IMG/VR virus record: IMGVR_UViG_2703719367_000013
Length of the DNA: 8,398 nucleotides
Reading direction: 5' to 3' (one strand)
Origin: a virus
Taxonomy: Duplodnaviria > Heunggongvirae > Uroviricota > Caudoviricetes
Below, piece by piece: positions 6,001 through 8,398 of the stretch; position 1 is the first letter of the stretch, and the number at the start of each line of letters is the position of its first letter. A program made the position numbers.

Positions 6001-8398
6001 AATCAGGTAAAGGCACTTACCCGAATCAGGTAAACACAAAAGACAAACTAACAAAAGACAATATAAAACCTTATTCGTCCGAGAATTCTGGCGAATCCTC
6101 TGACCTGCCAGAAAACGACCTTCCTGTGGTGAAAGCGGATGCTGCGATTCAGAGCGGCAGCAAGTGGGGGAAAACAACTTCTGGTCCGGTAACGTGCTGA
6201 GCCCGGCCAAACTCCGCGATAAGTGGACCCAACTCGAAATCAACCGTAACAAGCAACAGGCAGGCGTGACAGCCAGCAAACCAAAACTCGACCTGACAAA
6301 CACAGACTGGATTTACGGGGTGGATCTATGAAAAACATCGCCGCACAGATGGTTAACTTTGACCGTGAGCAGATGCGTCGGATCGCCAACAACATGCCGG
6401 AACAGTACGACGAAAAGCCGCAGGTACAGCAGGTAGCGCAGATCATCAACGGTGTGTTCAGCCAGTTACTGGCAACTTTCCCGGCGAGCCTGGCTAACCG
6501 TGACCAGAACGAAGTGAACGAAATCCGCCGCCAGTGGGTTCTGGCTTTCCGGGAAAACGGGATCACCTCGATGGAACAGGTTAACGCAGGAATGCGCGTA
6601 GCCCGTCGGCAGAATCGACCATTTCTTCCATCACCCGGGCAGTTTGTTGCATGGTGCCGGGAAGAAGCATCCGTTATCGCCGGACTGCCAAACGTCAGCG
6701 AGCTGGTTGATATGGTTTACGAGTATTGCCGGAAGCGAGGCCTGTATCCGGATGCAGAGTCTTATCCGTGGAAATCGAACGCGCACTACTGGCTGGTTAC
6801 CAACCTGTACCAGAACATGCGGGCCAATGCGCTGACTGACGCGGAATTACGACGCAAGGCTGCCGATGAACTGACCTGTATGACAGCGCGAATTAACCGT
6901 GGTGAGGCGATACCTGAACCAGTAAAACAACTTCCTGTCATGGGCGGCAGACCTCTAAATCGTGTTCAGGCGCTGGCGAAGATCGCAGAAATTAAAGCTA
7001 AGTTCGGACTGAAAGGAGCAAGTGTATGACGGGCAAAGAGGCAATTATTCATTACCTGGGGACGCATAATAGCTTCTGTGCGCCGGACGTTGCCGCGCTA
7101 ACAGGCGCAACAGTAACCAGCATAAATCAGGCCGCAGCTAAAATGGCACGGGCAGGTCTTCTGGTTATCGAAGGTAAGGTCTGGCGAACGGTGTATTACC
7201 GGTTTGCTACCAAGGAAGAACGGGAAGGAAAGGTGAGCACGAATATGATTTTTAAGGAGTGTCGCCAGAGTGCCGCGATGAAACGGGTATTGTTGGTATA
7301 CAGAACTTAGCATCGAAGGCCTATTGTTTTCGACAGGAGGCCATCGAAATGACACTATGGTACCGTCTTTACCCACCGCCTTCTGCTAAGTTTAGGAATA
7401 CAAGATGTTGCTGCCGTTAAAAAATAGTCGTAATTTCTATTAGAATTTGGGCAATATAACCAGCACATAGATAAGGGAGTCGTTTTATGCACGAACTATT
7501 TGTGCTGGTTTTGAGCACCTGTGCTAGCCTCAGCAATATGTCAGGTTGTTCAGTGGAAGTAGTGAATGTCAACACCACAAAAGAGCCGGTAAACGTCTTT
7601 TATAGCAGGAAAGACTGCGAAGAAAGCATGAAAAACATTATGCTAAATCATGCTCTATACCATGAAGTATCAGGCAGAGAGCCATATATGGCAAAGTGCG
7701 AACAAGTATTTGTCTCAAAAAGTTTAATGAAATAATTGGCCAAAAACGACATATAACAAACTCTTATAGGAGCTTAACGTGGAAGATTACTTAGTTTTTG
7801 GTTTAGGTTATGAAGGCGATATAAAGAACGATGAAGCAGGGCTTGATAAGATAAGCGTGGTAACGAAATCGGTAGTGCGTTCTACCAATTCCAATGAACC
7901 AGTGGTTTACCAAGTGACTGAGTTTAAAGAATTTAATGTTGTGAGACATCAAGCGTTTGATAGTGAATACTACAACATAGCATTCGATGTCTTACCATCC
8001 CGCGTCCGTATTGATGCTGCAATCCGTAAATATCACCCCAAGAAATCCTCCTCAGCTTAGTAAGCTTTGATTTTCCATTATCAACCAGCAATAATAATGT
8101 CCTCGGAGCCTGAACAACTCCGGTGACTTCTGCGCTAAACGGGGACGTTTATGCGCACATACAATCCAAACTCTCTTCTCCCTTCACTGATGCAGAAATG
8201 CACCTGTGGTTCTTTGCATCCAACGTTTGACCTCTGCGGAGGTGAAGCGTGAACCTCCCACAAGACGGTATCAAATTGCATCGCGGTAACTTCACTGCTA
8301 TCGGCCAGCAGATCCAGCCTTATCTGGAGAACGGAAAATGCTTTCGCATGGTGCTTAAACCGTGGCGTGAGAAACGCAGTCTTTCCCAGAATGCACTC

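Follow-up and report, generated by a model that had tools for sequence, protein, structure and literature searches.

In the 8,398-nt stretch of lambdoid prophage DNA analysed here (the window), the replication gene O is interrupted by a lesion in which 171 bp of coding sequence are replaced by two A's. The lesion is private to this sequence among the collections searched, and the positions of its boundaries relative to allele-specific bases incline us to read it as a seam introduced when short reads were assembled across a collapsed inter-prophage repeat. A genuine deletion in the prophage of a single isolate, involving either the loss of 171 bp and the gain of AA or the loss of 172 bp between copies of GGACA and the gain of AAA, is a credible if less probable origin for the same sequence.

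We compared the window with the prophage of O157:H7 strain 644-PT8 (locus L004), whose intact O has 1020 bp and 339 codons. Window positions 1-6171 differ from L004 at three sites and positions 6174-8398 match it perfectly; between them, at a junction located at 6171..6174 on the plus strand, L004 7273-7443 (171 bp) is replaced by AA, for a net change of -169 bp. Position 6171 (L004 7272) is the last left-flank base in register, 6172-6173 are the filler AA, and 6174 corresponds to L004 7444. Intact genes run from ...AAGTGGGGGA into CAGCAG and on through the 171 bp to GCATGCCAGG before reaching ACAACTTC..., whereas the window reads ...AAGTGGGGGA-AA-ACAACTTC... and carries the strings GCAAGTGGGGGAAAACAACTTCTGG and GTGGGGGAAAACAACTT across the junction. 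Because the net loss of 169 equals 3x56+1, the reading frame changes, and the frameshift and the shortened C-terminal domain are one lesion, since both result from replacement of the 171 bp by 2 bp. The lesion removes or replaces residues T231-D288 of O, for 56 fewer residues net than in the 339-aa intact allele. These values agree with the preliminary description, which had put the absent residues at about 50-57 and had proposed that the P-interaction domain was shortened; residues 231-288 are indeed missing from it.

As written in the window, the O reading frame occupies 5481..6200 on the plus strand and encodes 239 aa, ending at a TGA stop at 6198-6200. Native O sequence in this frame reaches position 6171 and is followed by a 9-residue out-of-frame tail, KTTSGPVTC, such that the product ends in ...SGSKWGKTTSGPVTC. 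The orphaned 3' end of the gene, from codon 288 to GVDL and the stop, lies at 6174..6331 (plus strand) in the -1 frame relative to 5481 and specifies helix four of the C-terminal domain together with its tail; an ORF at 6164..6331 in this -1 frame encodes (M)GENNFWSGNVLSPAKLRDKWTQLEINRNKQQAGVTASKPKLDLTNTDWIYGVDL and holds NNFWSG...DWIYGVDL. Gene P, encoding a 233-aa helicase loader (6328..7029, plus strand; PF06992, E 3e-61), is intact, is 100% identical to P of O157 relatives, and overlaps the O remnant through ATGA at 6328. The coordinates originally reported for the end of the O frame (6198..6200), for the C-terminus in the -1 frame (to 6331) and for the ATGA overlap with P were all confirmed. 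A chance pattern is ruled out, as both halves of O are 100% identical to intact O genes. The contiguous in-frame C-terminal domain that marks a lambda-type O was found in every close relative and is lacking in the window. The start of O used in RefSeq is at 5481, where the gene overlaps a ydaT-like gene through ATGA. An alternative, lambda-like start is present at ATG 5571 (MANTAEIF), with a strong GGAGG (5562-5566) 4 nt upstream, and it aligns with the starts of most homologues, such that the first 30 annotated residues of O may be untranslated.

The portion of O upstream of the lesion is undamaged. The Phage_rep_O N-terminal origin-binding domain, the only part of O for which there is a Pfam model, is intact (PF04492, residues 51-145, E 4.7e-34, full profile coverage), and the origin iterons inside the gene, five 17-bp palindromic repeats of TTACCYGAATCAGGTAA at 5922..6033, are the same as in O157 relatives. 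An A/T-rich origin stretch (6036..6075, 78% A+T) is also intact. The window resembles the O region of lambda in having a Phage_rep_O domain, in-gene iterons followed by an A/T-rich origin stretch, an ATGA overlap with a lambda-type P, and ren downstream, and its O C-terminal region is near-identical to that of lambda (about 97% at the DNA level). It differs in its N-terminal domain and iteron specificity, having five TTACCYGAATCAGGTAA palindromes where lambda has four ATCCCTCAAAACGAGGGA-type iterons, and in that the C-terminal domain, contiguous in lambda, is interrupted by the 171-to-AA lesion. The palindromic 17-bp iterons encode a repeated peptide, LPESGKK, whose number varies among O homologues (alignment A4; the longest run is in P0065), and variation in iteron copy number is therefore seen directly as variation in the length of the O linker.

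Work on lambda (PMC6022878) places DNA binding in the N-terminal region of O and proposes its C-terminal region as the P-binding domain. To examine what the missing segment contributes we used an AlphaFold (AF2) model of an intact homologue, which is poor overall (mean pLDDT 49) and from which we took only the C-terminal helices. These are predicted to form a four-helix unit at residues ~230-316 (pLDDT 70-81; helices at 232-248, 257-271, 275-287 and 298-316), preceded by a disordered linker (130-226), and a search of solved structures returned no PDB relative. Residues 231-288 correspond to three of the four predicted helices of this C-terminal, P-recruiting domain, the only part of the C-terminal region that is confidently folded, a loss that would be in keeping with a real inactivating deletion. 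So would the behaviour of lambda mutants, in which a stop removing the last 35 O codons (ilr541c), loss of only the last 5 residues (Oam205, 294 of 299 aa) and small out-of-frame deletions in O all abolish its function (PMC6022878). O as written in the window is a null allele from which a full-length protein is impossible.

The frames meet at TGGGGGAAAAC (6165-6175), and it had been proposed that a sequencing error in the homopolymer at this site could account for the broken frame, with six G's as the true sequence and a naturally short C-terminal domain. One part of this proposal stands: addition of a single base at 6166-6170 does join the two frames, yielding a 283-aa product. Six G's are not the repaired state, however, because five is the ancestral count; intact alleles read TGGGGGACAGC, with exactly five G's followed by ACAGC, and the real difference from them is the exchange of 171 bp for AA. 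The repaired product would still miss three of the four helices, and one added base would not rescue O as written. Nor is the short domain a natural variant: an alignment of O proteins, the comparison that had been suggested for this question, indicated that all proteins with an intact lambda-type C-terminus retain the segment and that shorter O proteins have an unrelated C-terminus, and the region is uninterrupted and full length in each of the 152 phage records that cover it (152/152). Among lambda-type O C-termini in IMG/VR, 115 of 117 are full length and the other two have different lesions. We therefore regard a homopolymer-length error at G5A4 as very improbable; a technical cause was rightly raised, as described below, but the kind of artefact proposed was the wrong one. 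Since the cause is a 171-to-2-bp replacement and not a slip, a check of how long the region is, in reads or by PCR, would be informative, and a count of the G's would not.

Programmed -1 ribosomal frameshifting, or a functional O made from two ORFs, might be suggested by the -1 position of the downstream frame and by the G/A-rich run at the junction. The zero frame (TGG GGG AAA ACA) contains no X XXY YYZ heptamer, though, the predicted fold of the 90 nt downstream is weaker than that of shuffled controls (z = +1.33), and all relatives have a single ORF, none with the two-frame layout. The earlier judgement that programmed frameshifting is unlikely is borne out, and we give this reading hardly any weight; jointly with the homopolymer error it accounts for, at most, a very small share of the probability.

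The distribution of the lesion distinguishes the window sharply from its relatives. None of 5,426 complete E. coli genomes has the junction. The same O allele occurs in about 246 complete genomes of the species, at least 166 of them with the whole prophage module, and all of these keep the extra 169 bp. Searches for the junction, either exact or with 0-14 nt of filler, gave 0 matches in IMG/VR, GTDB representative genomes and JGI metagenome contigs, while the intact junction, used as a positive control in the same type of scan, was recovered from at least 120 contigs. The truncated product (with each of three alternative starts) and the 55-aa remnant have no record among 153 billion gene positions. 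The absence of the lesion from all other genome, contig and protein records searched weighs against a real deletion. It also bears on the proposal that the O lesion marks a decaying, domesticated prophage, which we do not uphold: the lesion is private, and an intact O accompanies the same module in at least 166 complete genomes.

If the lesion were a real deletion, the flanking sequence offers a possible substrate. A 5-nt direct repeat, GGACA, occurs at L004 7270 and 7442, in register with both breakpoints, and is what a genuine slippage deletion would use, a point that favours a real event and counts against an assembly seam. The window is also contiguous, with 0 Ns. The junction is not, however, the clean product of such a deletion: a clean deletion at the GGACA microhomology would read GGGGGACAACTTC, from which the window differs, and no pair of endpoints for a simple deletion from the intact sequence gives the junction seen in the window. 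A real deletion would thus need three extra bases, or two filler bases found in no allele. The two A's are part of the lesion and match no natural allele. We also considered a clean 169-bp deletion from a parent reading ...CCAAAACAAC and rejected it, as this sequence was found at 0/3944 places in complete E. coli genomes and on 0 IMG/VR contigs.

The spacing of polymorphic bases around the junction points instead to assembly. At 6146 (L004 7247) the window has G where most lambda-type O alleles have A, and at 6199 (L004 7469) it has G where about half of the other alleles have A or T. Position 6146 lies 25 nt before the last retained left-flank base and 6199 lies 25 nt after the first retained right-flank base, and the absent bases make up the inner part of a 221-bp block (L004 7248-7468) that PhiR34-type alleles share exactly, with the SNPs at 7247 and 7469 as its limits. 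The right end of the window has the same spacing: its last 25 nt (8373..8398) follow a polymorphic site at 8373 (L004 9643), at which 17-18 of 35 loci carry a different base. In locus L026, a 312-bp exact repeat begins directly after this site, and over the span of the window no exact repeat with L026 exceeds 162 nt except the 221-bp block and this 312-bp block at the window end. Seven single natural alleles each yield 25/25/25 offsets, and L026 reproduces all boundaries. With randomly placed boundaries the empirical p is 0.04 for the symmetry of the junction and 0.002 for the symmetry together with a matching end, for a statistic that was defined post hoc, when the pattern had already been noticed; if the lesion were a real deletion, the 25-nt offsets at both breakpoints and at the window end would be due to chance. 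If the window ends are ends of small-k contigs, a 25-nt offset is predicted at each of them; the right end has it and the left end does not. The offsets, the window end and the repeat blocks together keep technical error, one of the two explanations first offered for the broken frame, a live alternative.

These observations can be accommodated by a specific sequence of assembly steps. With de Bruijn assembly at k of ~25-26, the left unique contig would have to end 25 nt past the last allele-specific SNP and the right unique contig would have to begin 25 nt ahead of the next, and the window itself would be a scaffold end put together from unitigs of k≈25-26. We infer that the flanking contigs would then have been linked by scaffolding or gap closing, with the collapsed repeat contig skipped and the gap mis-closed with two bases, and that the source genome would carry a second lambda-type copy of O. 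In the real genome, G 6146 would run into ...GGGGGACAGCAG... and ...CCAGGACAAC... would run to G 6199, and O, if the lesion is such a seam, is probably intact and 339 aa long.

Draft assemblies break at the same place. A contig from a draft assembly of the same prophage (L005, GCA_016639835.1) stops 5 nt past the left breakpoint, and two clusters of partial proteins, P0006 (1437 members) and P0008 (96 members), terminate at ...SKWGTA. Draft contigs break at this spot in O because co-resident lambdoid prophages carry repeats of its C-terminal region. In public drafts overall, more than 1500 partial O proteins end in ...SKWGTA, a systematic contig break 29 nt after L004 7247. The window lesion is like the collapsed-repeat drop-outs of short-read E. 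coli O157 assemblies in its k-sized offset from SNPs, in the loss of the interior of an exact repeat and in the shared position of the breaks. It is unlike them in one respect: ordinary collapsed-repeat breaks leave separate contigs or runs of N, whereas the flanks in the window are joined through two bases that would be spurious.

Several results speak against an assembly seam in addition to the GGACA repeat. An allele that differs at both flanking SNPs was not demonstrated to be co-resident with the same prophage in any genome, the top matches belonging to ST131 and other lineages, and the alleles known to be co-resident in O157 (VT1-Sakai type and phi345 type) do not have the SNP at L004 7469. 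Within P, the candidate alleles have further exact blocks of at least 25 nt in common, yet the window shows no damage there, which would mean that the assembler resolved the shorter repeats. Moreover, pure de Bruijn assembly has no means of producing the AA, and a separate gap-closing error must therefore be assumed.

A genuine deletion would also not be without parallel, since independent lesions of this module are on record, namely the two of 117 IMG/VR loci noted above, four O::P fusions (P0001, P0007, P0022 and P0053) and an O::MT-A70 chimera (P0005). The fusions, such as P0001 (L006 204-1415), are in-frame singletons with differing junctions in public assemblies, and they, like the chimera, could be either real prophage deletions or misassemblies across inter-prophage repeats. 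If the window lesion is real, its product would consist of 230 native residues and the 9-residue tail, keeping the origin-binding domain and the linker and lacking the P-recruiting domain, and the prophage would be unable to load DnaB at its own intact origin and so would not replicate after induction. Translation of P might also drop, as the O stop would now lie 128 nt upstream of the P start. Such an allele would belong to the same class as the lambda RK- O mutants (ilr541c) and Oam205, in which the C-terminal end of O is removed and replication initiation is lost (PMC6022878). These mutants came from laboratory selection for cells surviving the induction of non-excisable prophages, whereas the window lesion bears no sign of selection and may not exist in vivo. 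A further idea, that the lesion is real and the truncated O is kept because it is useful, acting on induction or superinfection as a dominant negative that occupies iterons of its own specificity without recruiting P-DnaB and so blocks the replication of related phages while sparing the host from replicative killing, seems to us very improbable; the lesion has been seen only once, and the data accordingly lend no support to retention or selection of the truncated protein.

Under either a seam or a deletion the biological weight of the lesion is small, and nothing about it is new: it is either an artefact of assembly or an unremarkable loss-of-function allele, of a sort long familiar from lambda RK- mutants. 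If it is a seam, as we favour, it carries no information on prophage decay, and broken replication genes of lambdoid prophages in short-read E. coli assemblies can be repeat seams that should not be counted as decay; singleton O-P fusion proteins in databases would merit equal suspicion. If it is real, it adds one more private loss-of-function allele, in a prophage that cannot replicate from its own origin, and in Stx-converting relatives a lesion of this kind would be expected to lower induction-dependent gene amplification.

Overall, the window is all but identical to a prophage carried in O157:H7 chromosomes. Its genes are those of a lambdoid early region, namely bet, gam, a SIR2-family gene, an S24/HTH repressor, cro (frameshifted), a gene resembling ydaT, O with the origin inside it, P and ren. 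O of the intact O157:H7 Stx1a-type prophages (WP_000147884.1, e.g. 644-PT8) is 100% identical to the window on both sides of the junction, and the PhiR34_1 and Lambda_4C10 alleles are 97-98% identical on both sides. These relatives share the neighbours of the window (SIR2 defence gene, S24 repressor, frameshifted cro, ydaT-like gene, P and ren) and differ from it in that their O, of 1020 bp and 339 codons, has the 171 bp, and in that the window also has a three-site synonymous patch in bet. The patch consists of synonymous G>A changes at 692, 743 and 893 (minus strand), the only differences from O157 relatives outside the junction. The three changes together constitute the commonest natural bet allele, and the limits of the patch fall between 641 and 977; it could have come from a co-resident prophage by gene conversion, or from a switch of path in an assembly graph, and the seven candidate loci do not include bet. 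All five window bases that differ from L004, the two junction fillers included, are A.

The frameshift in cro (YdaS-family HTH; 4692-4920, lesion after 4765), which the preliminary description had coupled with the O lesion as a sign of joint decay, is real but has a different history. One copy of a tandem AGCCC-AGCCC is lost relative to phage Lambda_4C10, and restoring the 5 bp gives a 75-aa Cro. The lesion is common to complete O157:H7 genomes, in which RefSeq labels the gene 'frameshifted', a pseudogene. The cro frameshift is thus lineage-wide, and it is separate from and older than the O lesion whether the latter is a seam or a deletion.

The gene at the cII position (4939-5484) encodes a YdaT_toxin-family protein (PF06254, E 7.5e-30) and is not a homologue of lambda CII, though several phage records call it cII. 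Between the kil side and the repressor, a gene on the minus strand (2175-3782) encodes a 535-aa SIR2_2-domain protein that matches the PADLOC candidate defence system PDC-S25 over its full length (E 2e-235) and, more weakly, the SIR2 domain of ThsA. Its position corresponds roughly to that of the rex region in lambda.
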